Origin: Escherichia phage ES12
Strand: one strand, 5' to 3'
Length of the DNA stretch: 64,000 nt
Sequence record: MN508614.1
The notes under the pieces are model-generated. The model was not told the DNA's origin, did no database searches, and saw only the letters and a program-made list of their open reading frames with translations. Both the position numbers and the translations under genes were made by a program. Below are positions 2,104 to 63,313 of this stretch, in pieces. Within the stretch, counting starts at the first letter, position 1. Each line of letters starts with the position of its first letter.

Positions 2104-2162
2104 TTTATCCCTCCAAGTAACTGTGAATATACTATCACAATTCTAGGAGAAAGTAAACAACT

Positions 2163-3150: not shown

Positions 3151-3620
3151 TCAGTGATAAAGTTATTTAAATTTTGAGTATATTTCTTTTCATCAAAAAT
3201 CTTTTGTTGTCTGCGTAGCCGCCATGGCATTTCAATGAACGTATACCATATCCCAGATAATATTGATGCAGTAAAAATATTAACAAGTATGGTTAAAAGA
3301 ATCCAATCTCCTATTCTGTCCATTGGATTTTTTATAAAAAAGTAAAATACGAATAATGTCACAGGAAGACTAATAATATACCACAGAATCATAATTTTAT
3401 CTGTGAACCAATCAGCGTTCGTTAACTTAGCGCGACCATTATGAATACACACGAATTTATCATCTGTTATAATAGATGGCTTAGCTGCTTGATATCCCAT
3501 TCTAAACTCCCTAATCAACAAATTTTTCATATCTTCGGAACAACCATTCCAGTCAACTCTATCAACTGAAATGCCATCATCCCCATCATCTAAATCATAC
3601 CAGCGAGTTTTTAAAATCAT
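3132..3620 (-). CDS. Small membrane protein (two predicted TM helices), translationally coupled
   Basis: 162-aa ORF, hydrophobic segments ILWYIISLPVTLFVFYFFI and ILLTILVNIFTASILSGIWYTF; stop overlaps nudE start. Confidence 0.6.
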
Positions 3621-3991
3621 TTAATTTTCCTACAATCACTCACAAACTCTTCCATTGATTCTTTTTCAATATAAGACATGTAGCTATTATATTCCTTTAA
3701 TTGTATTTTGTAATCTTTTTTTCTTTGCCAATTTATTTTAAAATTATCATAATGAAAATATAACATGGTACCAAAGAATGAAAATAATGAAATCGCTATA
3801 GTATAATGAAGTTCACTCCAAACTTCTATTATATCTATTATACCGCTGACGTTACTACGGATGTTTAAAATAAGACAGTCAATTAACAATCCAAAAAGAC
3901 TACCCGCAAGAGCTGCAGCCAACGCTACAGCAAAAATTAAAAATGACTCATGAAGAGAATATTTGACTTTATTTAGTTTTGGCTTTTGCAT
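3617..3991 (-). CDS. Small membrane protein (two predicted TM helices), translationally coupled
   Basis: 124-aa ORF, ATG at 3991; stop TGA overlaps next start as ATGA; hydrophobic segments. Confidence 0.6.
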   Translation of the reverse strand: MQKPKLNKVKYSLHESFLIFAVALAAALAGSLFGLLIDCLILNIRSNVSGIIDIIEVWSELHYTIAISLFSFFGTMLYFHYDNFKINWQRKKDYKIQLKEYNSYMSYIEKESMEEFVSDCRKIK

Positions 3992-4365
3992 CGTGATTCC
4001 TTAACAAATTTCATAATTTCATCAAATTCATGCGCAGCAAGTTTAAGCTGATGTTCCTTTTTAATCTTTTTACACTGAGCTTTCCAATCACGTACACGTT
4101 TACGATAGTGTCTTCCTTGATACCAATATCCTATCCAATTTATAGGTACTAATAAAAGCGGAACTACCAACGGAAGAATTAGTGTTGCTCCAAATATTGC
4201 ACCAGATTCAATATCAGTCATAACGTCTATAACCATTCCAGCAATCACCAGAATCACAAATGATACAACTACCACAGGACCTATTAACACATCAGTAGAA
4301 ATTATCTGACGCTTTAATTCATACTTCAACGGTTTACTTGGAAGGTATAGTGATGGTTTTGACAT
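3973..4365 (-). CDS. Small membrane protein; start moved to first ATG (ORF-track start at 4386 is TTG)
   Basis: Hand check: codon at 4386 is TTG, first ATG at 4365; hydrophobic core ILVIAGMVIDV...ILPLVVPLLLVPI. Confidence 0.55.
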   Translation of the reverse strand: MSKPSLYLPSKPLKYELKRQIISTDVLIGPVVVVSFVILVIAGMVIDVMTDIESGAIFGATLILPLVVPLLLVPINWIGYWYQGRHYRKRVRDWKAQCKKIKKEHQLKLAAHEFDEIMKFVKESRCKSQN

Positions 4366-6545: not shown

Positions 6546-7019
6546 TTATTTGATTTGTTTAGCAGACCAAATGCGGTCTTTAATAATTTTTTGGATGTCT
6601 TCAACATACTCTAGGTCATGAGCATGTGGATTATCTTTGAAACTATAAGCACGGGCTAACTTTTGGCCTTCGGTTTTGATTACTAAAAGCTCTTTAAGGA
6701 TAGCTTCATATTTAGCGATAATTCCTTTAACGATATTTTTTTCTTGTGCCGCTTTAGGATCTGCTTTAGGAGCAGGTTTACCAGAAGCCTTTGCAAAAGC
6801 AGCGCCAGTAGCAACTAAACTTTTCCAGGCCATACTAACTGCATTTCCCGTAAATCCTTCCGCTTTCATGTCGCGTGCAAACTGGAATCGTGATTCATCA
6901 GAAGCATCTTTATAGGAATATTTACCCGCGGCAATGGCAGCTTTTGCAACAGCTTGAATTTCGGTGCTAGATGCTTCATTTAACACCGCTTCATTTAAAA
7001 ATTGAGTATATGATTTCAT
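6546..7019 (-). CDS. Internal-protein-like protein with CTS-like N-terminus MKSYTQFLNEA; Ala/Lys-rich
   Basis: Internal ATG at 7019 with AGGAAA RBS; the ORF-track N-terminal extension to 7196 crosses a terminator and structured RNA region and is rejected. Confidence 0.65.
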   Translation of the reverse strand: MKSYTQFLNEAVLNEASSTEIQAVAKAAIAAGKYSYKDASDESRFQFARDMKAEGFTGNAVSMAWKSLVATGAAFAKASGKPAPKADPKAAQEKNIVKGIIAKYEAILKELLVIKTEGQKLARAYSFKDNPHAHDLEYVEDIQKIIKDRIWSAKQIK

Positions 7020-7401: not shown

Positions 7402-7752
7402 TTAATATTCTTTTAAAGCATCAATCTGTTCACGGCGTTTACGCCATAAATCAATTGCTTCATACGCAGATTCAGCATTTCGAATTGGACGGCATTTATA
7501 TAAAGACTTGTGATTTTGATATTGCGTAGATAACGGAATTTTATCTAAAAGGTCTTTATGTTCAAAGTATTCATAACCATCTAAGCCAAATGAACGATTT
7601 TTAAGAAATTGCCAATGACCGTATTCGTTTTCGACATAAACATAATCTGCGTGCTGATAAAGCAAATTAATTACACGTTCAGAAATAACAGTGTCATTAT
7701 GATTAAAATAGAATGTTAAATCATGAACTACTAAATAAACATTACCTTTCAT
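7402..7752 (-). CDS. Hypothetical protein
   Basis: 116-aa ORF, GAGGAA RBS, start 17 nt downstream of tRNA-Arg 3' end. Confidence 0.55.
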   Translation of the reverse strand: MKGNVYLVVHDLTFYFNHNDTVISERVINLLYQHADYVYVENEYGHWQFLKNRSFGLDGYEYFEHKDLLDKIPLSTQYQNHKSLYKCRPIRNAESAYEAIDLWRKRREQIDALKEY

Positions 7753-7768: not shown

Positions 7769-7844
7769 TGGTCGAGGCAGTAGGGATCGAACCTACGACC
7801 TAGGACTTAGAAGGTCCTTGCTCTTCCTTCTGAGCTATGCCTCG
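7769..7844 (-). tRNA. tRNA-Arg (anticodon UCU)
   Basis: Hand-folded cloverleaf: acceptor CGAGGCA/UGCCUCG, anticodon loop CUUCUAA, T-loop GGTTCGATCC, CCA encoded. Confidence 0.85.
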
Positions 7845-7848
7845 GATT

Positions 7849-7923
7849 TGGCGGACGTGATAGGATTCGAACCTATAACCAATCGCTTAACAGGCGATCG
7901 CTCTGCCATTGAGCTACACATCC
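7849..7923 (-). tRNA. tRNA-Asn (anticodon GUU)
   Basis: Acceptor GGATGTG/CACGTCC, anticodon stem ATCGC/GCGAT, loop CTGTTAA, T-loop TTCGAAT, discriminator G, CCA encoded. Confidence 0.8.
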
Positions 7924-7927
7924 AAAT

Positions 7928-8014
7928 TGGTGGGGAGTGATGGAGTCGAACCACCCGAGTCGCAATGACAATGGATTTACAGTCCACACCGCTACCTCTA
8001 CGGGATAACTCCCC
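7928..8014 (-). tRNA. tRNA-Tyr (anticodon GUA), long variable arm
   Basis: Acceptor GGGGAGT/ACTCCCC, anticodon loop CTGTAAA, 15-nt variable arm, T-loop TTCGACT, CCA encoded. Confidence 0.8.
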
Positions 8015-8023
8015 AAATTAATT

Positions 8024-8098
8024 TGGTGGCCCTGGGTGGAATTGAACCACCATCTGGCGATTATGAGTCGCTTGCTTGAACCTTCCAGCTACAGGGCC
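8024..8098 (-). tRNA. tRNA with CAU anticodon (Ile2 or Met; Ile expected by analogy with T4)
   Basis: Acceptor GGCCCTG/CAGGGCC, anticodon loop CTCATAA, T-loop TTCAATT, CCA encoded. Confidence 0.75.
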
Positions 8099-8099
8099 T

Positions 8100-8175
8100 T
8101 GGTGCTGATTGACGGAATCGAACCGCCGACCTTCTCATTACAAGTGAGTTGCTCTACCTACTGAGCTAAATCAGC
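8100..8175 (-). tRNA. tRNA-Thr (anticodon UGU)
   Basis: Acceptor GCTGATT/AATCAGC, D-arm GCTCAGTAGGTAGAGC, anticodon loop CTTGTAA, T-loop TTCGATT, CCA encoded. Confidence 0.85.
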
Positions 8176-8180
8176 AAAAC

Positions 8181-8270
8181 TGGCGGAGGCGATAGGATTT
8201 GAACCTATGAGTCGCCGGAGCGACTGCCGGTTTTCAAGACCGGTGCATTAAACCACTCTGCCACGCCTCC
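8181..8270 (-). tRNA. tRNA-Ser (anticodon UGA), type II
   Basis: Acceptor GGAGGCG/CGCCTCC, anticodon stem CCGGT/ACCGG, loop CTTGAAA, long variable arm, CCA encoded. Confidence 0.85.
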
Positions 8271-8272
8271 AG

Positions 8273-8346
8273 TCTCCATACAAGGATTTGAACCTTGGAC
8301 CTCCTGATCCCAAATCAGGCGCTCTACCAAACTGAGCTACACGGAG
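8273..8346 (-). tRNA. tRNA-Pro (anticodon UGG), CCA not encoded
   Basis: Acceptor CTCCGTG/TATGGAG (two G-U pairs), anticodon loop TTTGGGA, T-loop TTCAAAT; 3' end followed by CTG not CCA. Confidence 0.8.
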
Positions 8347-8356
8347 TAAATTAAAT

Positions 8357-8430
<74 letters not shown>

Positions 8431-8435
8431 AAATT

Positions 8436-8522
8436 TGGTGCGAGAAGTGGGACTCGAACCCACAAGGAAATCATTCCGCAGCATTTTAAGTGCTGTGCCT
8501 TTACCAATTTGACCATTCTCGC
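8436..8522 (-). tRNA. tRNA-Leu (anticodon UAA), type II
   Basis: Acceptor GCGAGAA/TTCTCGC, anticodon stem CAGCA/TGCTG, loop CTTAAAA, long variable arm, T-loop TTCGAGT, CCA encoded. Confidence 0.85.
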
Positions 8523-8528
8523 GCTATA

Positions 8529-9137
8529 TTATTTATTACGTGAAAAAGAATGTTCTATCAATTCTGGACACTTTCGTTCTATCCATTTTCTAGCTTTTTG
8601 TGGGCTTATACCTATTATTTTAGCAGCTTTACTAACCCATCCAAATTTAGAATAATCGATTTTAACTAATTCTTCGTAAATTTCATCAGTTAAAATCTTT
8701 TCATTAATATTTACCAGTAAATGATATAATTTATTATCATTAGCAATTTTAATGAATCTTTTATAGTTTCCGCCTTTACTTAAACCTAATGAAGTAATTG
8801 CAGATGATATAGTAGTCGAATTTAATAGTGCGTTTAAAATTTCTTCATCACTAACATTATAACGCTTTCTATTATTTTTAATATTTTTACCAGCAAAAGT
8901 ATCAGTTTGCGAATGGCAATTTGGACATAATAATCTTAAATTTGATTTAAGATGATTTTTGTTATTTCCATCAATATGGTCTAATTGTAGAACAATATGC
9001 TTATTTTGCCATTTTGAAATTTTACAAATTGCACACTCATATGGAAAAATATTTTCTTTTATTATTTTGTCTTTTAGCTTTCCTGTACTAAAATTTGGGT
9101 GTTTTCCTTCAAAAATTTCAGCTAATTTAGTATCCAT
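8529..9137 (-). CDS. HNH-family homing-endonuclease-like protein
   Basis: HNH motif CAICK...LQLDHIDGNNKNHLKSNLRLLCPNCHSQTD; ORF-track start at 9161 is TTG, first ATG at 9137; stop 7 nt from tRNA-Leu 5' end. Confidence 0.8.
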   Translation of the reverse strand: MDTKLAEIFEGKHPNFSTGKLKDKIIKENIFPYECAICKISKWQNKHIVLQLDHIDGNNKNHLKSNLRLLCPNCHSQTDTFAGKNIKNNRKRYNVSDEEILNALLNSTTISSAITSLGLSKGGNYKRFIKIANDNKLYHLLVNINEKILTDEIYEELVKIDYSKFGWVSKAAKIIGISPQKARKWIERKCPELIEHSFSRNK

Positions 9138-9236
9138 AATATGATTCCCAATTATTAACAAAGGCTCTTAAGCAAGAACCCTTGATGATAGAGGGTATTA
9201 ATCAGTGCGATATGAGTTAATAATAACAAATAATTC

Positions 9237-9752
9237 TTAAAGCAAATTAAACATTTTAACGGTCGGCAAAACAATTTCTTCTTCTATATAAGAGTATTTA
9301 ACACTCTCAACTACACGCAAAAAATCATAATCATAATACTCAGAAGCATTACCTAAAATATTAATAAGTCCTTCAAGCACTTTATTACCATTCACAAAAA
9401 ATAAGTCAAATACACGTTCTTCATCTTCTTCAGATTTATTACCAAGATCAACTTCTATGCGAAAGACCTTTTTAATGAATTCTGGATAAATCTGGTCTGA
9501 GAACAGTCCTTCAACCAAGTATTCATAAATAAAAAGAGATTGCTCGCTGAACAAACCATTACCGCAATAGCGCTCAATTTTAGTACTAGAATATCTGCTT
9601 TTAAATTTCTTTAAAAGATACTGAAATTGTAAGATTTCATGCTCTTCTACGCCAAACAGTGTTTTAGTTTTATAGTTGTCACCATCATTTTCCCAGGTAG
9701 TGACATCAATTACGTAGCCCTGCGGAATTGTAGTACCTAAACAAATATTCAT
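9237..9752 (-). CDS. Hypothetical protein
   Basis: 171-aa ORF with ATG start, tightly packed with neighbours. Confidence 0.55.
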   Translation of the reverse strand: MNICLGTTIPQGYVIDVTTWENDGDNYKTKTLFGVEEHEILQFQYLLKKFKSRYSSTKIERYCGNGLFSEQSLFIYEYLVEGLFSDQIYPEFIKKVFRIEVDLGNKSEEDEERVFDLFFVNGNKVLEGLINILGNASEYYDYDFLRVVESVKYSYIEEEIVLPTVKMFNLL

Positions 9753-13440: not shown

Positions 13441-14265
13441 TTAGATATTTGACCAGACTTTGTTTGCAGAGAAACGTTTTCCTTTTGAAACGAACTGCTG
13501 AAGTGGCATCAACACAACGTTCGCCCAGTCTTTCGGGGCGATTTCAACAAGGCTACCCATAATATTACCAGGTATATATGCCTTAATCATTTGGTCTGCA
13601 CCCCTAAATCCTTTCACTTGACTCCAATCAATTTTTAATTTCGTTTTATTAGTAATAGTAGGTGTATTTGAGTATTGCTTTAAAAGCTCTTCTAGAAACT
13701 GTTGACGAGCTTTAGGTGGAATATAGTGCAAGTTTAATCCATACATTAAATTATGCTTACCTAAACCAAGGTAAATTATTAAAGGAAATTTATCCCAGTA
13801 AGGAAGAGTTTCCTTGTGTTTAGCATCATAAGCAAAAGCATATATTCGTCCCGGCTGCGGGCGAACAACTTTATGTCCTTTTACTTGCTTAATAGTTTCA
13901 GCAAACCACTTTCTGGTTTTATTATTAATTGCTGCACCTTCATTACGAATTTTATCACGCAATGTTTGTCTGAATGAATTTATCATAAGCAGTTGTCTTT
14001 CTTGCTTATTGAGTTTATTCATTGGTTTTGATTCAAGCTTTTGAATCTTTTCAGCCGTTTTAATTCCTGAAGCATATTTTGACATTGCCGAAGTAAACGT
14101 AGAGTATTTAATTCCTCTTTCTTCAGCAAATTGCTTTCCTGACATTCCTTTTGCTTTGGCCTTTTTATATTCAAGACCTATTTGAATCCATTTCTTTTCG
14201 TTTAATGATTGCTTAACCTTTGGAACTTGGGGAGTGCTTTCATTAATTATTTGAAAAATAGCCAT
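13441..14265 (-). CDS. 2: gp2 DNA end-protector protein
   Basis: 274-aa ORF, T4 synteny and size. Confidence 0.9.
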
Positions 14266-15355: not shown

Positions 15356-17066
15356 TAACCTTAATTGGTTTGTTGGTGTTGTTGAAGATAGAATGGACCC
15401 ATTAAAATTAGGTCGTGTTCGTGTTCGTGTGGTTGGTCTGCATCCACCTCAAAGAGCACAAGGCGATGTAATGGGTATTCCAACTGAAAAATTACCATGG
15501 ATGTCAGTTATTCAACCTATAACTTCTGCAGCAATGTCTGGAATTGGAGGTTCTGTTACTGGACCGGTAGAAGGAACTAGAGTTTATGGTCATTTTTTAG
15601 ACAAATGGAAAACTAACGGAATTGTCCTTGGCACGTATGGTGGAATAGTTCGCGAAAAACCGAATAGACTTGAAGGATTTTCTGACCCAACTGGGCAATA
15701 TCCTAGACGTCTAGGAAATGATACTAACGTATTAAACCAAGGCGGAGAAGTAGGATATGATTCGTCTTCTAATATTATCCAAGATAGCAATCTAGACACT
15801 GCAATAAATCCCGATGATAGACCACTATCAGAGATTCCAACCGATGATAATCCAAATATGTCAATGGCTGAAATGCTTCGCCGTGATGAAGGATTAAGAT
15901 TAAAAGTTTATTGGGATACCGAAGGATATCCGACAATTGGTATTGGTCATCTTATCATGAAGCAACCAGTTCGTGATATGGCTCAAATTAATAAAGTTTT
16001 ATCGAAACAAGTTGGTCGTGAAATTACTGGAAACCCAGGTTCTATTACAATGGAAGAAGCGACGACTTTATTTGAACGTGATTTGGCTGATATGCAAAGG
16101 GATATTAAATCACATTCTAAAGTAGGACCAGTCTGGCAAGCTGTCAACCGTTCTCGTCAAATGGCATTAGAAAATATGGCGTTTCAGATGGGTGTTGGCG
16201 GTGTAGCTAAATTTAACACAATGTTAACTGCTATGTTAGCAGGAGATTGGGAAAAAGCATATAAAGCCGGTCGTGATTCATTGTGGTATCAACAAACAAA
16301 AGGCCGTGCATCCCGTGTTACCATGATTATTCTTACGGGGAATTTGGAATCATATGGTGTTGAAGTGAAAACCCCAGCTAGGTCTCTATCAGCAATGGCT
16401 GCTACTGTAGCTAAATCTTCTGACCCGGCTGACCCTCCTATTCCAAATGACTCGAGAATTTTATTCAAAGAACCAGTTTCTTCATATAAAGGTGAATATC
16501 CTTATGTGCATACAATGGAAACTGAAAGCGGACATATTCAGGAATTTGATGATACTCCTGGGCAAGAACGATACAGATTAGTTCATCCGACTGGAACTTA
16601 TGAAGAAGTATCACCGTCAGGAAGAAGAACAAGAAAAACTGTCGATAATTTGTATGATATAACCAACGCTGATGGTAATTTTTTGGTAGCCGGTGATAAA
16701 AAGACTAACGTCGGTGGATCAGAAATTTATTACAACATGGATAATCGTCTTCACCAAATAGATGGAAGCAATACAATATTTGTACGTGGCGATGAAACTA
16801 AGACAGTTGAAGGCAATGGAACTATCCTAGTTAAAGGTAATGTTACTATTGTAGTTGAAGGTAATGCTGACATTACAGTTAAAGGAGATGCTACTACTTT
16901 AGTTGAAGGAAATCAAACTAACACAGTAAATGGAAATCTTTCTTGGAAAGTTGCTGGGACAGTTGATTGGGACGTTGGTGGTGATTGGACAGAAAAAATG
17001 GCATCTATGAGTTCTATTTCATCTGGTCAATACACAATTGATGGATCGAGGATTGACATTGGCTAA
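15339..17066 (+). CDS. 5: gp5 baseplate hub and tail lysozyme (cell-puncturing device)
   Basis: 575 aa; N-terminus MEMISNNLNWFVGVVEDRMDPLKLGRVRVRVVGLH; lysozyme domain; C-terminal VxGxxxxx beta-helix repeats. Confidence 0.97.
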   Translation: MEMISNNLNWFVGVVEDRMDPLKLGRVRVRVVGLHPPQRAQGDVMGIPTEKLPWMSVIQPITSAAMSGIGGSVTGPVEGTRVYGHFLDKWKTNGIVLGTYGGIVREKPNRLEGFSDPTGQYPRRLGNDTNVLNQGGEVGYDSSSNIIQDSNLDTAINPDDRPLSEIPTDDNPNMSMAEMLRRDEGLRLKVYWDTEGYPTIGIGHLIMKQPVRDMAQINKVLSKQVGREITGNPGSITMEEATTLFERDLADMQRDIKSHSKVGPVWQAVNRSRQMALENMAFQMGVGGVAKFNTMLTAMLAGDWEKAYKAGRDSLWYQQTKGRASRVTMIILTGNLESYGVEVKTPARSLSAMAATVAKSSDPADPPIPNDSRILFKEPVSSYKGEYPYVHTMETESGHIQEFDDTPGQERYRLVHPTGTYEEVSPSGRRTRKTVDNLYDITNADGNFLVAGDKKTNVGGSEIYYNMDNRLHQIDGSNTIFVRGDETKTVEGNGTILVKGNVTIVVEGNADITVKGDATTLVEGNQTNTVNGNLSWKVAGTVDWDVGGDWTEKMASMSSISSGQYTIDGSRIDIG

Positions 17067-17595
17067 TATACTTCCAATGAGCGCTGATTTAGGAGAATCC
17101 ATGGAAGGTTCTTCTATCGACGTCACCTTTACCGCTCAATTAGAAACAGGTGAAACGTTAGTATCTATAAATATAACTAGTTACGAAGAAACTCCTGGGG
17201 TTTTAGTAGAAGAAAATCGCTTATACGGAACATATGAATCTGTGTTTGGATTTGGAAATGACGCGTTGAAATATCGTTTAGGCGATGAATTTAAAACTGC
17301 TGCTTCATGGGAAGAACTTCCTACTGATTCTGATACTCAGTTGTATTTGTGGAAAGCTCCTCAGAACCTCCAGAAGACATTCACTTACGAAGTAACATTA
17401 ATATATGACTACCAAGAACAAAGTGAATCTGGAGGTTCTGGCAGTAATTCTAGGTCATCCTCTGATACTACTGAACCGACGGATCCTCCTGCTCCAGTAA
17501 GAAAAACTCTAGTTAAAAATTACACAAAAACTATAGTTGGAAATTGGAGTCGTTGGGCTAATAAATTAAGAAGCTATGTATATGAGAGGTCATAA
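17038..17595 (+). CDS. 5.1: gp5.1-like protein (start uncertain)
   Basis: ORF between gp5 and gp5.4 in T4 synteny. Confidence 0.6.
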
Positions 17596-17889
17596 ATGTC
17601 AGGATTGAGTTATGATAAGTGTGTTACTGCTGGCCATGAAGCGTGGCCTCCAACAGTTGTGAATGCTACGCAAAGTAAAGTATTCACTGGAGGAATTGCT
17701 GTTCTAGTAGCAGGCGATCCAATTACAGAACATACAGAAATTAAAAAGCCATATGAAACACATGGCGGAGTGACACAACCTAGAACTTCTAAGGTATATG
17801 TCACTGGAAAGAAAGCTGTTCAAATGGCTGATCCAATATCATGCGGTGATACTGTGGCTCAGGCATCATCTAAAGTATTCATTAAATAG
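17596..17889 (+). CDS. 5.4: gp5.4 PAAR-repeat spike tip protein
   Basis: 97-aa ORF in T4 gp5.4 position. Confidence 0.85.
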
Positions 17890-43301: not shown

Positions 43302-43314
43302 TCTTTGACGATTT

Positions 43315-43337
43315 AAGGGACCTTCGGGTCCCTTTAG
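43315..43337 (+). terminator. Rho-independent terminator after gene 23
   Basis: agggacc-uucg-ggucccu hairpin followed by T-rich run. Confidence 0.7.
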
Positions 43338-43349
43338 TTGTTTTTATGG

Positions 43350-43357
43350 TATAAATA
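43350..43357 (+). promoter_or_regulatory. T4 late promoter TATAAATA upstream of gene 24
   Basis: Exact TATAAATA 28 nt upstream of the ATG at 43385. Confidence 0.55.
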
Positions 43358-43384
43358 AATCATATAAACCAAAAGGAAAGCGCA

Positions 43385-46284: not shown

Positions 46285-47421
46285 TTATGGATAGGTATAG
46301 ATGATACCAGTTTCTAAAGCAGTTTTATGAATGATGTATCCATTACGTGATTCTTGGACATCAACTTCTGGATAGTCTTTCATCATCTTCTGAAGAGTGT
46401 AACGATGCAGGTAGTATTTACTATCTGGGTCTTCAGTTTTCCAATCTTTACCTTCTTCAGTCATTTTTTGAATTTCATCCATAACCCACCAACCGCACCA
46501 GATGTAAGCTGAGCTACGGTGTGGAAGAGGATGAACATAAGGTAATTCACCTTCTGGTTCTGGAGCAACTTTATCAGTTACCTGAACTTGACCTTCTGCC
46601 GTAATAGTTTTGCTATCATAATCAGCAGCAGTAACAGTTGCAGTAACTTCAATAGTTTGACTTCCAATAGATGAGGTATCAACGGTGTATACATTAGTTG
46701 ACCCTTCTACAGGAGAAGAATCTTTCTTCCATGAATACTCAATTTGCGCTTCTTCTGGAGCATCAGTGACATTAGCGGTAAATGTAGCCGAAGCATCTTG
46801 CTGCACGTTAATAGAAGGAGGAGTCAATGTAACCTGTGGATTCATTGTCTTCTTATTAACCGTTAATGATACTTCATTGGAAGTAACTTCCTTTTCATTG
46901 TAATTTTCTGCAGTTACTTGCGCTACACATTTAATTCTTTTTACTCCACTTGTAGTTGGAGTATAGTTAAATGTAGAGTTAGTTTCTCCACCAATTTGAG
47001 AATCATCTACATACCACTTATATGTAGCAGACGCTCCATCAGGTTGAGAAGCTAAGGCAGCGGTAAATTGAACTGGAGTTCCAATTACTCCAGCTGAAGG
47101 ACTATTAGGAGTTACTGTTATTGTAGTAGTCTGTGTCTTATTTTGAACTGTGATAGTTGTCGTAGCTTCTGCTGTTTCAGGTTCAGATTCAGATTCTGGA
47201 ACTGTATTTGTTGCAACGACTTTAATAGTCTTTTGACCGGCAGGTCCTTTTAGTACATAACTAAAAGTTGCTTCAGCTCCATCCTGTGGAACATTATCTA
47301 CACTCCAAGCATAGGTAATAGTTCCACCTTCAGTTTGACCACTGGGTGCAGCAGTAAACTGCTTGGTTTCATCAATAACTCCTGTTGGGGTTTTAGGAGT
47401 TATATCAACTGTAAAAGTCAT
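46285..47421 (-). CDS. hoc: Hoc, highly immunogenic outer capsid protein (Ig-like domains)
   Basis: 378 aa, repeated Ig-like T/V-rich modules, T4 synteny. Confidence 0.92.
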   Translation of the reverse strand: MTFTVDITPKTPTGVIDETKQFTAAPSGQTEGGTITYAWSVDNVPQDGAEATFSYVLKGPAGQKTIKVVATNTVPESESEPETAEATTTITVQNKTQTTTITVTPNSPSAGVIGTPVQFTAALASQPDGASATYKWYVDDSQIGGETNSTFNYTPTTSGVKRIKCVAQVTAENYNEKEVTSNEVSLTVNKKTMNPQVTLTPPSINVQQDASATFTANVTDAPEEAQIEYSWKKDSSPVEGSTNVYTVDTSSIGSQTIEVTATVTAADYDSKTITAEGQVQVTDKVAPEPEGELPYVHPLPHRSSAYIWCGWWVMDEIQKMTEEGKDWKTEDPDSKYYLHRYTLQKMMKDYPEVDVQESRNGYIIHKTALETGIIYTYP

Positions 47422-47430
47422 AAGTTATCC

Positions 47431-48111
47431 TTATTTTAATGTTACGAAAGAAGAATTACGTGTTTCACGAATTAGAACTGATCCGTCACGATTAATGTAG
47501 TAAATTAAGCTAAATAAAGTTTGGTGTGCCGACGCATGTTCAAAACTAGTTGGGTGAGATTTCCAATCTGGGGTTTCAGCAATCCATTGATAAATCCACC
47601 AAGGAACAGTGCAGAATCCTGGATTTTTTCCAATCAGCTGAAGATTCGGGCTAAAGTTTTCCGGAAGAGTAAATACAGACGGCTTTTCAGATTCAATAAT
47701 CTTATCTACAGCTTGTTCAAACTTTTCTTCAACAAAAGGAGTGTCTTCAATCAAAACATCAGTATTTTCAGGAATTTTATCCGTTTCTACCACTTCAATT
47801 TTAATATCAGATTTAACTGGAGAATCAATCAGAAGTGCTGCTTCTGGATTAACTTCTTCATCGTCATATTTTAATCCCTCTGCAGCATCAGCAGCATCAA
47901 TTAAGTCTTTAATAGATAACCCATCAGTCTCTGGCATAGGTTCACTAGCGAGCTTCTGGAGGGCTTCTTCAATATCAACAACGATATTATCAAAAGATTT
48001 GTTCTTTTTGACCTTTATACCAAACTGCTCAGCATATTCAGCTAATTTAGCTTTAGCTTCTTTATTATCATCAAGAGCCTTTAACTCTGCAATATAATCT
48101 TTATCTATCAT
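47431..48111 (-). CDS. inh: Inh, inhibitor of prohead protease
   Basis: 226 aa, T4 synteny and size. Confidence 0.85.
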   Translation of the reverse strand: MIDKDYIAELKALDDNKEAKAKLAEYAEQFGIKVKKNKSFDNIVVDIEEALQKLASEPMPETDGLSIKDLIDAADAAEGLKYDDEEVNPEAALLIDSPVKSDIKIEVVETDKIPENTDVLIEDTPFVEEKFEQAVDKIIESEKPSVFTLPENFSPNLQLIGKNPGFCTVPWWIYQWIAETPDWKSHPTSFEHASAHQTLFSLIYYINRDGSVLIRETRNSSFVTLK

Positions 48112-48160: not shown

Positions 48161-48778
48161 ATGTACCACTTTGTATATGAAACAACAAATCTAATAAATG
48201 GTAAAAAGTATATAGGAAAACACTCTACTGATGACTTGAATGATGGTTACCTTGGTTCCGGTAAGGCAATTCAGCAGGCTATAAAGAAATATGGTGAAAA
48301 CAATTTCTCTAGAACAATACTAAAAGAGTTTAAAACTTCCGAAGAAGCGTACATGTATGAAGAAGAAATTATAACTCCTGAAATAATAAAAAGCAAAAAT
48401 TATTATAATATGAAACCCGGTGGAATTGGTGGAATTGTTATGACTACAGAGGTTATAGCAAAGATGAAAGAATCTTCCGCTAAGAGATTTGAAAACTCAC
48501 CGGGCACGGTATTAGGTACAACTTGTTACACTAATGGAACTAAAAATATTTTTATTAAACCTGGAGAACTTGTTCCAGAAGGATTTGTAAAAGGGATGGT
48601 TCATCCTAATAGAAAGTCCAGAAAAGGATGTAAAGTCAAACCGACTACCACAGGAACTTTTTGGGTCAATAATGGTGCAATAAATAAATTAATACAGCCA
48701 GACGGTATTATTCCCGACGGATTTATTAAAGGTCGTCTCATGAAAAGAGATTCTAAAGGCAAATTTAGTAAGGCATAA
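48161..48778 (+). CDS. segE: GIY-YIG homing endonuclease
   Basis: 205 aa, N-terminal GIY-YIG-like VYETTNLINGKKYIGKH; between inh and uvsW. Confidence 0.88.
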   Translation: MYHFVYETTNLINGKKYIGKHSTDDLNDGYLGSGKAIQQAIKKYGENNFSRTILKEFKTSEEAYMYEEEIITPEIIKSKNYYNMKPGGIGGIVMTTEVIAKMKESSAKRFENSPGTVLGTTCYTNGTKNIFIKPGELVPEGFVKGMVHPNRKSRKGCKVKPTTTGTFWVNNGAINKLIQPDGIIPDGFIKGRLMKRDSKGKFSKA

Positions 48779-48780
48779 TT

Positions 48781-50289
48781 ATGGATATTAAAGTACATTT
48801 TCACGACTTCAGTCATGTACGCATCGATTGTGAAGAGAGCACGTTCCACGAATTAAGAGATTTCTTTTCGTTTGAGGCCGATGGATATAGATTTAACCCT
48901 CGCTTCAGATATGGCAACTGGGATGGACGAATTCGTCTTTTAGATTATAATCGCCTTCTTCCATTCGGTTTAGTCGGGCAAATTAAAAAGTTCTGTGATA
49001 ACTTTGGCTATAAAGCCTGGATTGACCCACAAATTAACGAAAAAGAAGAATTATCAAGAAAAGATTTTGATGAATGGCTTTCTAAATTAGAAATCTATTC
49101 AGGAAATAAAAGAATTGAACCACACTGGTATCAAAAAGATGCAGTGTTCGAAGGATTAGTTAATCGTCGTAGAATTCTTAATCTTCCAACATCCGCTGGT
49201 AAATCTTTAATTCAGGCTCTGCTCGCTCGGTATTATTTGGAAAATTACGAAGGTAAAATTCTTATCATTGTTCCAACAACTGCTCTAACAACTCAGATGG
49301 CTGATGACTTCGTTGACTATCGTTTATTCAGTCATGCAATGATAAAGAAAATTGGTGGCGGAGCATCAAAAGATGATAAATATAAAAATGATGCACCAGT
49401 CGTTGTTGGTACATGGCAAACTGTAGTTAAACAACCAAAAGAATGGTTCTCACAGTTTGGAATGATGATGAATGATGAATGTCATCTTGCTACAGGAAAA
49501 AGTATTTCATCTATCATATCAGGTTTAAATAACTGCATGTTCAAATTTGGTCTATCTGGTTCATTACGTGATGGCAAAGCCAATATCATGCAGTATGTTG
49601 GAATGTTTGGTGAAATATTTAAGCCAGTAACGACTTCTAAGTTAATGGAAGATGGACAAGTAACTGAGCTAAAAATTAATAGTATTTTTCTTCGCTATCC
49701 CGATGAGTTCACTACTAAATTAAAGGGAAAAACTTATCAAGAAGAAATAAAAATTATTACGGGGCTTAGTAAAAGAAATAAATGGATCGCTAAATTAGCT
49801 ATTAAGCTTGCGCAAAAAGATGAAAACGCTTTTGTCATGTTTAAACATGTATCACATGGTAAAGCTATTTTCGATTTAATTAAAAATGAATACGATAAAG
49901 TTTATTACGTATCAGGGGAAGTTGATACCGAAACCCGCAATATAATGAAAACCTTAGCTGAAAATGGTAAAGGAATAATTATAGTAGCTAGTTATGGTGT
50001 ATTTTCTACTGGTATTTCAGTTAAAAATCTGCATCACGTTGTTTTAGCGCACGGTGTTAAATCAAAAATCATTGTATTACAAACAATCGGTCGTGTATTA
50101 CGTAAGCATGGTTCTAAGACAATAGCAACAGTCTGGGACCTCATAGATGATTGTGGTGTTAAGCCAAAATCTGCTAATACGAAAAAGAAATATGTTCATT
50201 TGAACTATCTTTTAAAACACGGCATTGATCGTATTCAGCGCTACGCAGATGAAAAATTTAATTACGTAATGAAAACAGTTAATTTATAA
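48781..50289 (+). CDS. uvsW: UvsW DNA/RNA helicase
   Basis: 502 aa; Walker A LPTSAGKS and DECH box. Confidence 0.95.
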   Translation: MDIKVHFHDFSHVRIDCEESTFHELRDFFSFEADGYRFNPRFRYGNWDGRIRLLDYNRLLPFGLVGQIKKFCDNFGYKAWIDPQINEKEELSRKDFDEWLSKLEIYSGNKRIEPHWYQKDAVFEGLVNRRRILNLPTSAGKSLIQALLARYYLENYEGKILIIVPTTALTTQMADDFVDYRLFSHAMIKKIGGGASKDDKYKNDAPVVVGTWQTVVKQPKEWFSQFGMMMNDECHLATGKSISSIISGLNNCMFKFGLSGSLRDGKANIMQYVGMFGEIFKPVTTSKLMEDGQVTELKINSIFLRYPDEFTTKLKGKTYQEEIKIITGLSKRNKWIAKLAIKLAQKDENAFVMFKHVSHGKAIFDLIKNEYDKVYYVSGEVDTETRNIMKTLAENGKGIIIVASYGVFSTGISVKNLHHVVLAHGVKSKIIVLQTIGRVLRKHGSKTIATVWDLIDDCGVKPKSANTKKKYVHLNYLLKHGIDRIQRYADEKFNYVMKTVNL

Positions 50290-50302
50290 GGGCTTCGGCC
50301 CT

Positions 50303-50545
50303 TTGGAGAAAAAGATGTTACTAGAATTTAAACAATTTCTTTATGAAGCTTCTATTGATGAATTTATGGGTAAAATTGCCTCTTGTCAAACATTAGAAGG
50401 TTTAGAAGAGCTTGAAGCTTATTATAAGAAAAGAGTTAAAGAAACTGAATTAAAAGATACTGATGACATCTCAGTCAGAGATGCTTTGGCAGGAAAAAGA
50501 GCTGAATTAGAAGATTCAGACGATGAAGTAGAAGAAAGCTTTTAA
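50303..50545 (+). CDS. uvsW.1: UvsW.1-like small acidic protein
   Basis: 80-aa ORF immediately after uvsW. Confidence 0.8.
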   Translation: MEKKMLLEFKQFLYEASIDEFMGKIASCQTLEGLEELEAYYKKRVKETELKDTDDISVRDALAGKRAELEDSDDEVEESF

Positions 50546-59165: not shown

Positions 59166-59195
59166 ACTATAACACAACACGAGGGACTTGTAAAC
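59166..59195 (-). promoter_or_regulatory. T4-type early promoter (GTTTAC, 18-nt spacer, TATAGT)
   Basis: -35 overlaps the stop codon of the upstream Alt paralog. Confidence 0.5.
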
Positions 59196-61252
59196 TACAT
59201 CTTGAACTTTTTAGACATTCCGTTGATGTTAACCAAAGAAGCTAAGATTTGAGAAACTTCATTTTCCTCTTCTTTTGATTCTTCTACAAGGAATTGATTA
59301 AATCCAGCCATTGGACGAACTTCACCAGTTTCCATTAGATGGTCTCCATCATATACTGATTCTTCTAATTGTTCAGAAGGAGGAACGATTGTACCTTCGA
59401 TTAGATACTTGTTATAAGCAGTTTCTTTCATAAAGTACGTACTTACTTTATTAATCTTCAGTAAAATTCCACGTGGTAGAATAACTTCAGCTTCTGATGG
59501 AAATCCTGATAAATGACCTGGAACGATAACTTTGATTCGCTCAGCTCCTTTAATTACCATACCCACGCTAGTTTCAGCATCTTCATTAGCATATGTAGAA
59601 TGACTACCCATATGCATCAAATCTTCTGCATCAACGGAACCTTCTCCTTCGCCAGAAAATACTGCGCCAGAATCATCTAGAGCCATATAGTTTTTACCAT
59701 GCTCACCGAAGATATTTGGTTTAAGCGATGTGGATACGAAGTTCTTGAAATAGAACATTTTGTTTTCAATGTTATGACGCAAAGTTTTAAAGGTAACTTC
59801 TTGTCCACGATAAAGCGTAGTTCCTGGAGGAAGAACTGAACCTTTAGCGAATGCAGAATCCAACGTCTCGATGTGCTTAATAGCTCGTTCCATATATTCT
59901 TCACGGGTAGAATCTGGTTTACCCAAAAGGAACGAGTTCATTTCAACATATGAATCTGCACAATAATCTTCAATTACATCAGACTCAGCCTGAGTTAATC
60001 CTTTTGGAGTTACTTCGGTGCTTGCGTATTCATATGCCTGAGCAGCAGATTCATTAATCAATTTATAAATGCCATTCATGACAAATTGAATAATAGCTAC
60101 CTTTTCGTCTGGTGTGGCTTTAGAACCTTTAACCAAATCATTGATAATTTTCTTAATAACATCAAAGCTATTAGAAATATTAATATCAGCGAGATCGCTT
60201 AAAATTTTATCAGTCTTATAATCAAAGAATTCTTTATTCTTTAAATATTCTTGAGAACCTTGATATGTTATATCGCTCTGTAACTTGATAGATGGATCAC
60301 GTAAACGTGCATGGGCTAATGCAATATGATTTCGGAAGCTTTCGAGTTCATAATCACTAGATTTAAAACGAGAAGCGCTTCTCATACCGCCTATAGCTCC
60401 TTTGCTGAAGTTTGAACCAATTTGAATAACGCCAGAGTTCATTGGTCCTTCTGCTTTATACACCGGAACTTTAGATTCAAACTCTTGATATTTCTTAGCA
60501 GCGAAGCTATCACCCTGAAGTGAAGCATCAACAGTAGAATATTGAGCTTGTGCTGCTAATCGACGACTAATTTTAGTTTTCTGAATAACAGCTTGGTCCG
60601 TGCGCTTATCATTTTCTAAAGCAATAGAAGCAGCAACAGCAACAGCTTTAGGAACAGCATTTCCTGTTTTAACGTCTACATAAACATCACCGACCTTTGA
60701 TTCAACTTTTGTGAATAACTCAGTTGAAATAGGAGGTACACCTGTAATGTCTTCTAAATTGGCATTTTTACGGTAAACCATAATATATGCATATTTCTTA
60801 TCATAGTCCCAGATTTCCTTTAAAAGAACATATCGACCTGCTCCTTTAGTACGTACTAAACGGTCAGCAATAACTTGCATTTGACGAGCTGCGCCATTTG
60901 TTTTACTTTTTATTACGCGGAATAGGCATGCGTCGATTTTATACTGTTTCATTGTTTGAAGAGCAGTATCAAAAACGGCATTAATGACACCAATTGGATT
61001 TCCACCCAAGTTTTTAAGCTTAACTAATGATAGTTTCTCATTAACACCTATCATTACGATATGCATCATTTTATCGCCTGGCTTAACGTTTTTATTCGTA
61101 TCACCACCAGAGGTATATGTACAAAATCTAAATCCAGGAAGCACGCTTTCTTCGCCGGCTTGAATAGCAAAAATTTGTGGTATTTTATGCTTAGGATTTA
61201 AGTTAACAACCGGCGCCGAAGCGCCGTCAAATAATTCTGTAATAAGTTCCAT
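59195..61252 (-). CDS. Alt-like ADP-ribosyltransferase, divergent tandem paralog
   Basis: 685 aa; N-terminus MELITELFD shared with Alt; ART motifs present (LYRGQ, FVSTSL, EAEVILPRG); central region diverged. Confidence 0.85.
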   Translation of the reverse strand: MELITELFDGASAPVVNLNPKHKIPQIFAIQAGEESVLPGFRFCTYTSGGDTNKNVKPGDKMMHIVMIGVNEKLSLVKLKNLGGNPIGVINAVFDTALQTMKQYKIDACLFRVIKSKTNGAARQMQVIADRLVRTKGAGRYVLLKEIWDYDKKYAYIMVYRKNANLEDITGVPPISTELFTKVESKVGDVYVDVKTGNAVPKAVAVAASIALENDKRTDQAVIQKTKISRRLAAQAQYSTVDASLQGDSFAAKKYQEFESKVPVYKAEGPMNSGVIQIGSNFSKGAIGGMRSASRFKSSDYELESFRNHIALAHARLRDPSIKLQSDITYQGSQEYLKNKEFFDYKTDKILSDLADINISNSFDVIKKIINDLVKGSKATPDEKVAIIQFVMNGIYKLINESAAQAYEYASTEVTPKGLTQAESDVIEDYCADSYVEMNSFLLGKPDSTREEYMERAIKHIETLDSAFAKGSVLPPGTTLYRGQEVTFKTLRHNIENKMFYFKNFVSTSLKPNIFGEHGKNYMALDDSGAVFSGEGEGSVDAEDLMHMGSHSTYANEDAETSVGMVIKGAERIKVIVPGHLSGFPSEAEVILPRGILLKINKVSTYFMKETAYNKYLIEGTIVPPSEQLEESVYDGDHLMETGEVRPMAGFNQFLVEESKEEENEVSQILASLVNINGMSKKFKM

Positions 61253-61255
61253 GAT

Positions 61256-63313
61256 TTATCCTTGAACGAACTTGTAAGGCATGTTTGCAATATCTATACA
61301 AGACGCAATAATTCCAAGAGATGATTCTACTTTCTGTTTAACGTTTGATGAAACAAATGATGCAAAGTCAACTCTGTCTTCTATTTCAATATCACCTGTC
61401 ATTGCAACTACTTCGCCGGTTTCCATTAGACGGTCACCGTCATAAATTACCGATTCGGTGAGTTCTTCTGTGGTCATAACTTCAGCTTGAATAAGCTTGT
61501 TGTTAGTTTTAACTGTTCCATCATTGTAAGATGCATCGGTTATTTTATTAACTTTGACCATTAATCCACGTGGCAAAATGACTTCCATTTCATTTGAAGG
61601 TGCTAAACTTCCACCTGGTAAAACAACATTGACTTTATCAGCCCCAGTAATAACCCATCCAATTCCAACTAAATTATCGCTAGAATTTACTAGTCCTTCA
61701 TCAGTTTTATCAATAGAAACACTTAAACGCTTTTCGTCTGGTAAAACACCCACAGATGAATCAGTCATCCAGGTACCAAAAATGTTTGGATATAATGATG
61801 TTGACACAAAATTTCTAAAATAAAAAACTCGATTTTTTACCAGTGCTTCATATATTGAAGGTAACATTCGTTGTGAACGATACAAAGTAATACCTTTTGG
61901 TAATCGTTCACCATTTTTAAAGGCAGAATCTAAATTATCAATAGCTTTTTCTATATCAGATGCTGTCAAAATACTTGTACGCTCATCTGGATTATATAAT
62001 CCCAAAAGAGCGTTATTTATGTCTACATATCCTGAACTTACGTATTCACGAATTCCACGTTTTTGTGCCGGTGTGTATTTAGATGAATCTTTATTTTCGA
62101 CTATAGGATGTAGTGACCATCCAGCGGTAAGAGCATATCCACGCAATTCTCTTCGAATAATCTTTGTTTTTATTGCATTCCAAGAATTTTGTACTAACTC
62201 ATTCGCAGCATCTTGATTTAAATGCGAATGCTTGTTAATGTTTCTTTCTAACCAAGCACCTTTATATTTTTCTAAAGTATCATCAACTATAGAAGCAATA
62301 GTTTCTAAAGTTTTTATTGAAGTAATAGATTCTTTTCGTAATCTTTCTAAAGCTTTATTTTTTATTTCTGCATTAACATCAGATTCTTTATCTTCAGGAA
62401 TTATAGAAGCTTCTCTGAATGCCATTCCAGCTGTAACACTACTAAGAGCATTCTCTAATGCAAATCCTGAAGTAGAAATAACAGTTAATTCATTAGCGTC
62501 AGAAATTAAAGGAGCGTCAGCAGGTTTATTTAATTCTGCTGCTGAAGCCTCAAATTTTTGAAACATCGGCGTTTCAAATCTAGAAGATTCCAATGATTGA
62601 CTTTGCGCAATTGCTCTACGGGAAATTTTAACTTTAACGATTACAGCTTGGTCAGAACGTTTATCATTTTCTTGCGCAATAGATGCTGCAATTGCCTCAT
62701 TTTTAGTTACTTGAGCTCCAGTATCTTTATTGATATAAACATCACCGACCTTCGATTCAACTTTAGTAAAGAGCTCAGTACTAATTTCCGGAACTCCCGG
62801 AATGTCTTCTAGTGATACATTTTTGCGATGTATAAGAATATATGCATACTTTTTATCGTAATCCCAGAGTTCCTTAAGAAGGACGTATCTGCCACCTGAA
62901 CGACTACGGATAAGTCTATCAGCAATAACTTGAATTTGTCGAGCTTGACCAGCGGTTTTAGACTTAAGAATACGAAGCATACAGGCATCAATTTTATACT
63001 GACGCATTGTTTGCATCGCAACAGTAAAAACTGAATTGATATAATTAATTGGGCTTGGACCAAGACCTTTTAATTTAGCAATTGAACCTTTAGCAGTTAA
63101 TGTAAAAGGAACAATATGCATCATTTTATCGCCCATCTTTAAATCGCGATTAGTATCACCTCCAGATGTATAGGTACATAAACGAAAGCCTGGTTGTTCA
63201 ATTGCATCATCAACATGAACTGAAAAAATTTGCGGTATTTTCTTCTTTGGATTTAAGTTTGTAATCGGAAGAGTAGTATCTTCGTCAAATAATTCTGTAA
63301 TAAGTTCCATCAT
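61256..63313 (-). CDS. alt: Alt ADP-ribosyltransferase (head-packaged)
   Basis: 685 aa; MMELITELFDEDTTLPITNL; ART motifs LYRSQ, FVSTSL, EMEVILPRG. Confidence 0.93.
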   Translation of the reverse strand: MMELITELFDEDTTLPITNLNPKKKIPQIFSVHVDDAIEQPGFRLCTYTSGGDTNRDLKMGDKMMHIVPFTLTAKGSIAKLKGLGPSPINYINSVFTVAMQTMRQYKIDACMLRILKSKTAGQARQIQVIADRLIRSRSGGRYVLLKELWDYDKKYAYILIHRKNVSLEDIPGVPEISTELFTKVESKVGDVYINKDTGAQVTKNEAIAASIAQENDKRSDQAVIVKVKISRRAIAQSQSLESSRFETPMFQKFEASAAELNKPADAPLISDANELTVISTSGFALENALSSVTAGMAFREASIIPEDKESDVNAEIKNKALERLRKESITSIKTLETIASIVDDTLEKYKGAWLERNINKHSHLNQDAANELVQNSWNAIKTKIIRRELRGYALTAGWSLHPIVENKDSSKYTPAQKRGIREYVSSGYVDINNALLGLYNPDERTSILTASDIEKAIDNLDSAFKNGERLPKGITLYRSQRMLPSIYEALVKNRVFYFRNFVSTSLYPNIFGTWMTDSSVGVLPDEKRLSVSIDKTDEGLVNSSDNLVGIGWVITGADKVNVVLPGGSLAPSNEMEVILPRGLMVKVNKITDASYNDGTVKTNNKLIQAEVMTTEELTESVIYDGDRLMETGEVVAMTGDIEIEDRVDFASFVSSNVKQKVESSLGIIASCIDIANMPYKFVQG

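Follow-up and report, generated by a model that had tools for sequence, protein, structure and literature searches.

What kind of gene stands at the head of the tRNA operon in Escherichia phage ES12, and how did it come to be there? Among T-even phages, homing endonuclease genes are a driving force of mosaicism and of marker exclusion, and the initial annotation of the window, by which we mean the whole stretch of 64,000 nucleotides that was analysed, had noted an open reading frame (ORF) with an HNH motif abutting the tRNA cluster. Our analysis indicates that this ORF (8529..9137, minus strand) is probably a free-standing HNH homing-endonuclease gene of the F-TflIV type, which came once into Tequatrovirus as a 621-nt cassette taking the place of tRNA-Gln at the end of the tRNA operon nearest the promoter, and which later moved between phage backgrounds.

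The window comes from an ES26-like Tequatrovirus and has the gene order of T4 from ~63.7 to 126 kb. Over positions 1-47115 it shares 100% identity with Escherichia phage ES26 (MN508618.1, an unannotated record labelled 'UNVERIFIED'; record positions 64-47178), and the remainder is 99.64% identical, with 60 mismatches over 17 kb. At hoc (46847-47115) the window has one 288-bp tandem repeat, equivalent to one Hoc Ig-like domain, fewer than ES26. Elsewhere, T4 ipII and ipIII (1094 bp) are absent at the T4 position (window 2108-2113), a gene for a 157-aa internal virion protein (1204-1677; DUF7412, phrog_3155) lies between denV and vs.8, and two full-length 685-aa alt-like ORFs stand in tandem (59195-61252 and 61256-63313), the T4 counterpart being one alt gene with the short remnants alt.-1 and alt.-2.

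The HNH gene and the tRNA-Gln slot

The HNH ORF spans 609 nt and encodes 202 aa from an ATG start; a TTG 24 nt upstream is a possible alternative start, and homologues begin at the ATG. A full-length match to phrog_14736, 'HNH endonuclease' (E=5e-123), and 5507 homologues at E≤1e-5 in a search of 5.8 billion proteins argue that this is not a chance ORF, and a second PHROG HNH family was matched at E=2.6e-29. Pfam PF01844 scored 17.3 bits (E=0.0053), under its curated cut-off of 21.4, and a precomputed PF01844 match is present in the close homologues P0003 and P0004. The PADLOC profile PDLC03673, 'HEase', matched at E=3e-19 over the same coordinates as the F-TflIV-like domain. Within the ORF we located C35xxC38, D53-H54, N66 and C71-P-N-C74-H75, and in an alignment of 40 diverse homologues C35, C38, H54, N66, C71, P72, N73, C74 and H75 were invariant and D53 nearly so. 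The ORF carries the complete CxxC...DH...N...CPNCH zinc-HNH signature. The HNH reading was thus not refuted by this check, in which the catalytic residues and the zinc ligands were all found to be present.

An AlphaFold2 model built from the 40-homologue alignment (pLDDT 90.7) predicted an N-terminal beta-beta-alpha core of the HNH / His-Me finger fold, followed by a low-confidence linker at ~aa 80-95, and the predicted fold agrees with HNH domains. Alignment and model together place a zinc-stabilised HNH domain at ~aa 1-90 and helix-turn-helix (HTH)-like three-helix modules at ~aa 97-134 and 151-189, an architecture of one HNH domain plus two helical, putatively DNA-binding modules in a protein that would be active as a nuclease. 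Foldseek returned no significant match to the protein and a PDB sequence search no meaningful one. Homologues at 57-68% identity are full length with the same motifs, and the codons that vary among eight carrier phages comprise 13 synonymous and 3 non-synonymous ones, which points to purifying selection on the protein. No intron was detected at the locus with Rfam, and the gene is a stand-alone ORF replacing a conserved gene. Judged by its sequence, then, it is an intact gene for an HNH-plus-HTH protein with predicted nuclease activity. Many GenBank records already list it as an HNH or homing endonuclease; the searchable literature yielded nothing on the protein or its replacement of tRNA-Gln, including cleavage or co-infection data.

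The neighbouring tRNA cluster (7769..8522, minus strand; ARAGORN and Rfam) comprises nine genes, which in the order of transcription are Leu(UAA), Gly, Pro, Ser, Thr, Met/Ile(CAU), Tyr, Asn and Arg, with neither tRNA-Gln nor segB. The first of these, tRNA-Leu, occupies 8436-8522 on the minus strand (ARAGORN), and its 5′ end is 6 nt from the HNH stop codon (8529-8531). Both the motif DH...N...CPNCH and the adjacency to the cluster noted in the initial annotation were thus borne out, but the placement needed correction: the ORF does more than abut the cluster and fills the slot of tRNA-Gln, which BW-1 and T4 carry at the exact position of the cassette. Comparison with these two phages delimits a 621-nt cassette (8523..9143, minus strand) made up of 6 nt (CATATT), the 609-nt ORF and 6 nt (TATAGC), the last 2 nt of TATAGC being the spacer between tRNA-Gln and tRNA-Leu. 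It takes the place of 67 nt in T4 and BW-1, namely nt 8-72 of tRNA-Gln and the 2-nt spacer. Read on the sense strand, the empty allele of BW-1 and T4 runs ...TTAATAAT/TGGGAAT/TAGCC... through tRNA-Gln to ...TTCCCA/GC/GCGAGAA, where tRNA-Leu begins, and the HNH allele of the window and ES26 runs ...TTAATAAT/TGGGAAT/CATATT-ATG...TAA-TATA/GC/GCGAGAA. The first 7 nt of tRNA-Gln, TGGGAAT, which form the 5′ strand of its acceptor stem, survive at 9144..9150 (minus strand). This remnant precedes the HNH start codon by 6 nt and may supply a GGGA ribosome-binding site for the gene. ARAGORN found no tRNA-Gln in six HNH-positive loci, and none is annotated in a51. There is also none elsewhere in the 64-kb window, and none in the 166.8-kb ES26 record, which has the nine cluster tRNAs only.

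Upstream of the gene, a possible MotA-type middle promoter was read by eye at 9220..9244 on the minus strand (TGCTTTA, 12 nt, TATTAT), and this TGCTTTA-N12-TATTAT arrangement is shared by the upstream regions of the HNH and tRNA-Gln alleles. A scan for sigma-70 consensus promoters and terminators around the ORF gave nothing decisive, and the leader RNA contains a conserved hairpin with a fold energy like that of shuffled sequences (z=-0.6). The tRNA-Gln genes of BW-1 (L001 2326-2397) and T4 (L003 6459-6531) themselves differ in the whole of their 5-bp anticodon stem, with compensatory changes (CTGGA/TCCAG in BW-1, TAGCA/TGCTA in T4) around the same UUG anticodon, and two distinct tRNA-Gln alleles are in circulation.

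Distribution of the cassette among Tequatrovirus phages

In a collection of 50,697 phage records, the full-length HNH protein was found at 95% identity or more in 63. Among the ~519-531 records with this tRNA-Leu, the HNH/tRNA-Leu junction occurs in 63 and the tRNA-Gln/tRNA-Leu junction in 448. HNH and tRNA-Gln are alternative alleles, with HNH at ~12%. To follow the cassette across backgrounds we compared eight HNH-positive phages (ES26, a51, BP32, slur03, Killian, JEP6, pSe_SNUABM_01 and CM8). The distance between the flank anchors is 621 nt in all eight, as opposed to 67 nt in BW-1 and T4, and cassette length and junctions are identical in 8/8 carriers, with sequence identities of 98.1-99.8%. 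This uniformity points to a single origin of the cassette.

The surroundings of the cassette are far less uniform. For example, the 600 nt upstream fall into two unrelated classes with ~48% identity, one containing a 171-aa phrog_2290 ORF and the other T4-type trna.2, and the tRNA and segB content downstream also varies between carriers. BP32, an HNH carrier, shares 97% identity with HNH-less T4 in the upstream flank. Similarly, ES26 matches HNH-less BW-1 without a difference over 1346 bp on the tRNA side of the cassette and over 518 bp on the other side, and beyond these flanks the two diverge by 2-3.4%; a treatment of ES26 and BW-1 as a near-isogenic pair was rejected for this difference outside the ~2.5-kb patch. 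The presence/absence polymorphism thus lies at one locus among close relatives and is discordant with flanking sequence. A single cassette found in differing flanks has either moved between backgrounds or been lost from them, and its occurrence in unrelated flank backgrounds is what is expected of a mobile element, in line with the mobility that the initial annotation had ascribed to free-standing endonucleases in T4-like phages.

Around the cassette, no HNH-linked single-nucleotide differences of the kind left by co-conversion were seen in the 110 nt upstream or the 340 nt downstream. Over the 340 nt from the start of tRNA-Leu the HNH-positive genome is 100% identical to BW-1 and slur03 and 99.7% identical to T4. 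The lack of a co-conversion tract in these natural sequences is a weakness for a homing model. Two further features count against homing: the allele is a replacement that deletes 65 nt with no clean insertion, and a frequency of ~12% is modest for an efficient drive element.

SegE and the absent seg genes

The initial annotation had set the HNH gene beside two other endonuclease sites, a segE gene between inh and uvsW and an uninterrupted junction of genes 23 and 24, and the comparison bears out both. segE (48161..48778, plus strand) encodes a GIY-YIG homing endonuclease that is identical to T4 SegE at 202/205 aa and exceeds the cut-off of Pfam PF19835, SegE_GIY-YIG (37.6 bits, cut-off 25); it lies between inh (47431-48111, minus strand) and uvsW (starting at 48781) with the same neighbour spacing as in T4. 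Between the end of gene 23 (43301) and the start of gene 24 (43385) lies a spacer of 83 bp (43302..43384), within which are a hairpin (GGGACC-TTCG-GGTCCC, 43317-43332), a Shine-Dalgarno sequence and a late-promoter-like TATAAATA (43350-43357). T4 does have segD here, as the initial annotation stated, within a 789-bp stretch (106522-107310) that corresponds to only 60 unaligned bp in the window. The same loci in relatives proved to be presence/absence polymorphisms in all three cases, HNH as counted above, segE in ~166 of ~500-516 records, and segD in ~55 as against 587 with the uninterrupted 23-24 junction. Lack of segD is thus the majority state and no peculiarity of this phage.

The absence of segB and segC extends the initial annotation. 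T4 segC and 5.3 (557 bp, T4 80218-80774) are absent at 17592..17598 in the alignment to T4, and no counterpart of segB, segC or segD exists in the window at the T4 positions (tRNA-Arg/tRNA-Ile, 5.1-5.3 and 23-24, respectively). In fact, phmmer queries with T4 SegB, SegC and SegD matched only the SegE ORF in the window, and phmmer and hmmsearch over all ORFs of at least 50 aa recovered only SegE and HNH; of the types tested, the whole ES26 record contains only SegE, SegG and HNH. The ES26-specific ORFs at 1204-1677, 6546-7016, 7402-7752, 9237-9752 and 17038-17595 were considered as endonucleases and rejected, as they match the DUF7412 internal virion protein or PHROGs of unknown function. BW-1 has a 660-nt gene annotated as a 'homing DNA endonuclease' between genes 3 and 2 (L101 2197-2856), which resembles SegE weakly (E=5.8e-8) and is absent at window 13444-13452 (668 bp as against 9 bp). 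Genes of this kind are usually patchy in their distribution, which accounts for the lack of segB, segC and segD. SegE is a known T4 element at a known site, and the presence of SegE without the other three is ordinary, already-annotated variation between such phages.

The 5′ end of uvsW (48781-49400) is at least 95% identical to the window in 157 records and 90-95% identical in the other 343, and segE (48161-48778) reaches at least 95% identity in 158 records. These near-equal totals look like a segE-linked uvsW haplotype, a co-conversion signature. The uvsW ORF itself (48781-50520 region) stops after 502 aa (stop codon at 50287-50289), directly followed by a GGGC-TTCG-GCCC hairpin, and the UvsW.1 portion is encoded further on in the +1 frame. 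In T4 (NC_000866.4) the two parts are fused in a single ORF of 587 aa, from which the window differs by a 1-nt deletion and a 2-nt insertion. BW-1 too is annotated with two coding sequences here, and the split is therefore apparently genuine variation, not an error made in sequencing one record.

Proposed homing, its rivals and known systems

Is residence at a tRNA operon peculiar to this cassette? HNH homologues at 68% and 57-58% identity occupy the same syntenic spot in metagenomic T4-like contigs, with the shared order gene 1, 57A, 57B, small ORFs, HNH and tRNAs. In one such contig (L011) the 68%-identical homologue lies 14 nt after an intact tRNA-Gln, and tRNA-Leu is missing; between this homologue and the next tRNA the contig has ~400 nt of G+C-rich non-coding sequence (3604-4009) with no Rfam match at the gathering threshold. 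To widen the view we surveyed the best 80 viral-contig loci (IMG/VR) encoding HNH relatives, where a tRNA occurs within 10 kb of the gene in 79/80, within 500 bp in 64/80 and within 100 bp in 36/80. The density of tRNA genes in these 80 loci is highest at the HNH gene, at 2.5/kb just downstream as compared with 0.2-0.3/kb at 9-10 kb. The stop codon lies no more than 10 nt from a same-strand tRNA in 24/80 loci, and a tRNA no more than 10 nt upstream of the start was seen in only 1/80. The association with tRNA operons is thus seen across the lineage as a whole.

After dereplication at 70% identity the abutting cases represent 21 lineages, in which the tRNA next to the stop codon is Leu in 11/21 and Tyr in 4/21, the background frequencies being 11.3% for Leu and 21% for class II. 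The binomial p-values (4.6e-6 for Leu, 1e-6 for class II) are indicative only, as the 21 lineages are not phylogenetically independent. We tentatively propose that the F-TflIV-like HNH clade could consist of widespread homing endonucleases specialised on phage tRNA operons, which would insert directly 5′ of tRNAs with a preference for class II tRNA-Leu and tRNA-Tyr, the stop codon abutting the tRNA so that RNase P sets the 3′ end of the mRNA, and which would displace neighbouring tRNAs and thereby remodel tRNA repertoires. The clade pattern suggests that tRNA genes serve such elements as landing sites in general and so help to shape the tRNA content of phages.

How would the cassette behave in an infected cell? 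The HNH gene would presumably head the transcript of the tRNA operon, and by analogy with segB and tRNA-Arg, the message would be cut by RNase P at tRNA-Leu, 6 nt beyond the HNH stop codon; formation of mRNA 3′ ends by RNase P at a tRNA has been discussed for segB (PMC2330249). When a carrier and a cassette-less phage infect the same cell, the enzyme would cut or nick the tRNA-Gln/tRNA-Leu region in the latter, and recombinational repair from the HNH-positive genome would copy the cassette in, deleting tRNA-Gln. Homing of this kind, with cleavage and marker exclusion, is what we infer for the gene. The predicted target site is tRNA-Gln, which is deleted in carriers, or tRNA-Leu, which the adjacency to Leu and Tyr suggests. 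The HNH-positive genome has lost most of tRNA-Gln, and a site in tRNA-Gln would give it immunity.

It is possible, if doubtful, that homing operates but that the enzyme recognises the 5′ part of tRNA-Leu, and of class II tRNA genes in general, the loss of tRNA-Gln having been collateral to the original insertion. The excess of Leu and Tyr among the abutting lineages is what such a site would produce, and the L011 homologue, which has an intact tRNA-Gln before it and no tRNA-Leu, fits as well. However, the lineages are not fully independent and the enrichment could equally reflect a co-inherited module of HNH and tRNA-Leu, and the HNH-positive genome keeps an unchanged tRNA-Leu and would have to tolerate or evade self-cleavage.

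An unlikely explanation is that the protein is an active nuclease with no role in homing, a domesticated or accessory enzyme acting, for example, on host or competitor DNA or in exclusion, and that the cassette spreads by homologous recombination between conserved flanks. The missing co-conversion signature and the low frequency of ~12% would follow naturally, and the HNH domain does resemble the defence nucleases ZorE and IscB, with scores far below their cut-offs. Against this, the best PADLOC and PHROG matches are homing-endonuclease families, a nuclease joined to HTH modules is the usual design of homing enzymes, the cassette and a conserved gene are strict alleles of each other, tRNA clusters house the whole clade, and the closest named relative, F-TflIV, is reported (PMC2330249, citing Akulenko 2004) to be a site-specific endonuclease encoded in a tRNA region. 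It is highly improbable that an earlier invasion left the ORF behind as an inactive gene in decay. T4 does carry defective elements such as mobA and I-TevIII, and the ORF scores under the Pfam threshold, but it is of full length in 63 records with protein identities of at least 95%, retains all its catalytic residues, has changed mostly at synonymous positions (13 to 3), and has homologues at 57-68% identity that are still full length with the same motifs.

With homing as the preferred reading, the cassette offers a clean natural example of a selfish nuclease gene gained at the cost of a tRNA gene, with occupied and empty alleles that are well defined among 63 and 448 genomes, respectively.

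Among characterised enzymes the nearest is F-TflIV of T5/BF23 (hegA; ORF070 of AY587007). Its catalytic domain is homologous to that of the HNH ORF (48% over 77 aa, E=8e-22 by BLASTP), the profile of 40 HNH homologues matches it at E=8e-36 (hmmsearch), and both proteins have the same CxxC...DH...N...CPNCH pattern. The F-TflIV gene directly follows tRNA-Ser and tRNA-Met on the same strand, the HNH ORF likewise lying in a tRNA region, and some GenBank records label the ES26-type ORF 'H-N-H endonuclease F-TflIV'. The C-terminal HTH gave a marginal 2.8-bit match between SKFGWVSKAAKIIGIS in the HNH protein and SKYSWI-RASKELGLS in T5 F-TflIV. The two differ in that F-TflIV has ~70 extra N-terminal residues, belongs to Demerecviridae and not to Straboviridae, and has a 3′ end that, unlike that of the HNH ORF, does not abut a tRNA. 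F-TflIV is described (PMC2330249, citing Akulenko 2004) as one of several site-specific HNH endonucleases with genes in the T5 tRNA cluster.

T4 SegB is the closest parallel in location, being a free-standing endonuclease of the same tRNA operon in the same phage genus that likewise shows presence/absence polymorphism with changes in tRNA content. The segB ORF ends 5 nt before tRNA-Arg, much as the HNH ORF ends 6 nt before tRNA-Leu, but the fold of SegB is GIY-YIG, the two proteins have no sequence similarity, and the segB slot, between tRNA-Arg and tRNA-Ile, is not that of tRNA-Gln. SegB is a homing endonuclease with cleavage sites inside tRNA genes, and it promotes inheritance of the region (PMC2330249); it provides the working model for HNH. 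Shigella phage CM8, which also carries HNH, has a 609-nt SegB-like GIY-YIG gene (L010 1303-1911) in the tRNA-Pro slot, between tRNA-Gly and tRNA-Ser, that stops 6 nt before tRNA-Ser and constitutes a second replacement of a tRNA by an endonuclease gene in the same operon. The tight stop-to-tRNA architecture of T4 segB and the CM8 gene therefore recurs with an unrelated nuclease fold, and the equal 5-6 nt spacing of SegB-type genes suggests convergence on one insertion and expression logic.

T4 MobA-E and I-TevIII are similarly free-standing genes between conserved genes of T-even phages, share the His-Me finger with HNH and are grouped with F-TflIV in a review (PMC5714182). Their loci differ from the HNH locus, none of them was found in the ES26 record, and as relatives they were rejected together with endonuclease VII (gp49), at E 0.07-0.75 by phmmer and profile searches of an eight-sequence database. 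Sequence comparison thus makes HNH an enzyme of the T5 F-TflIV type and not one of the Mob proteins of T4. HNH genes in phage tRNA clusters have been remarked on before (PMC6409571; PMC2330249), and the present case therefore extends known biology and adds no new category: endonuclease genes in phage tRNA clusters are of a known kind, and the new details are the precise replacement of tRNA-Gln and the clade-wide adjacency of the stop codon to tRNA-Leu or tRNA-Tyr.
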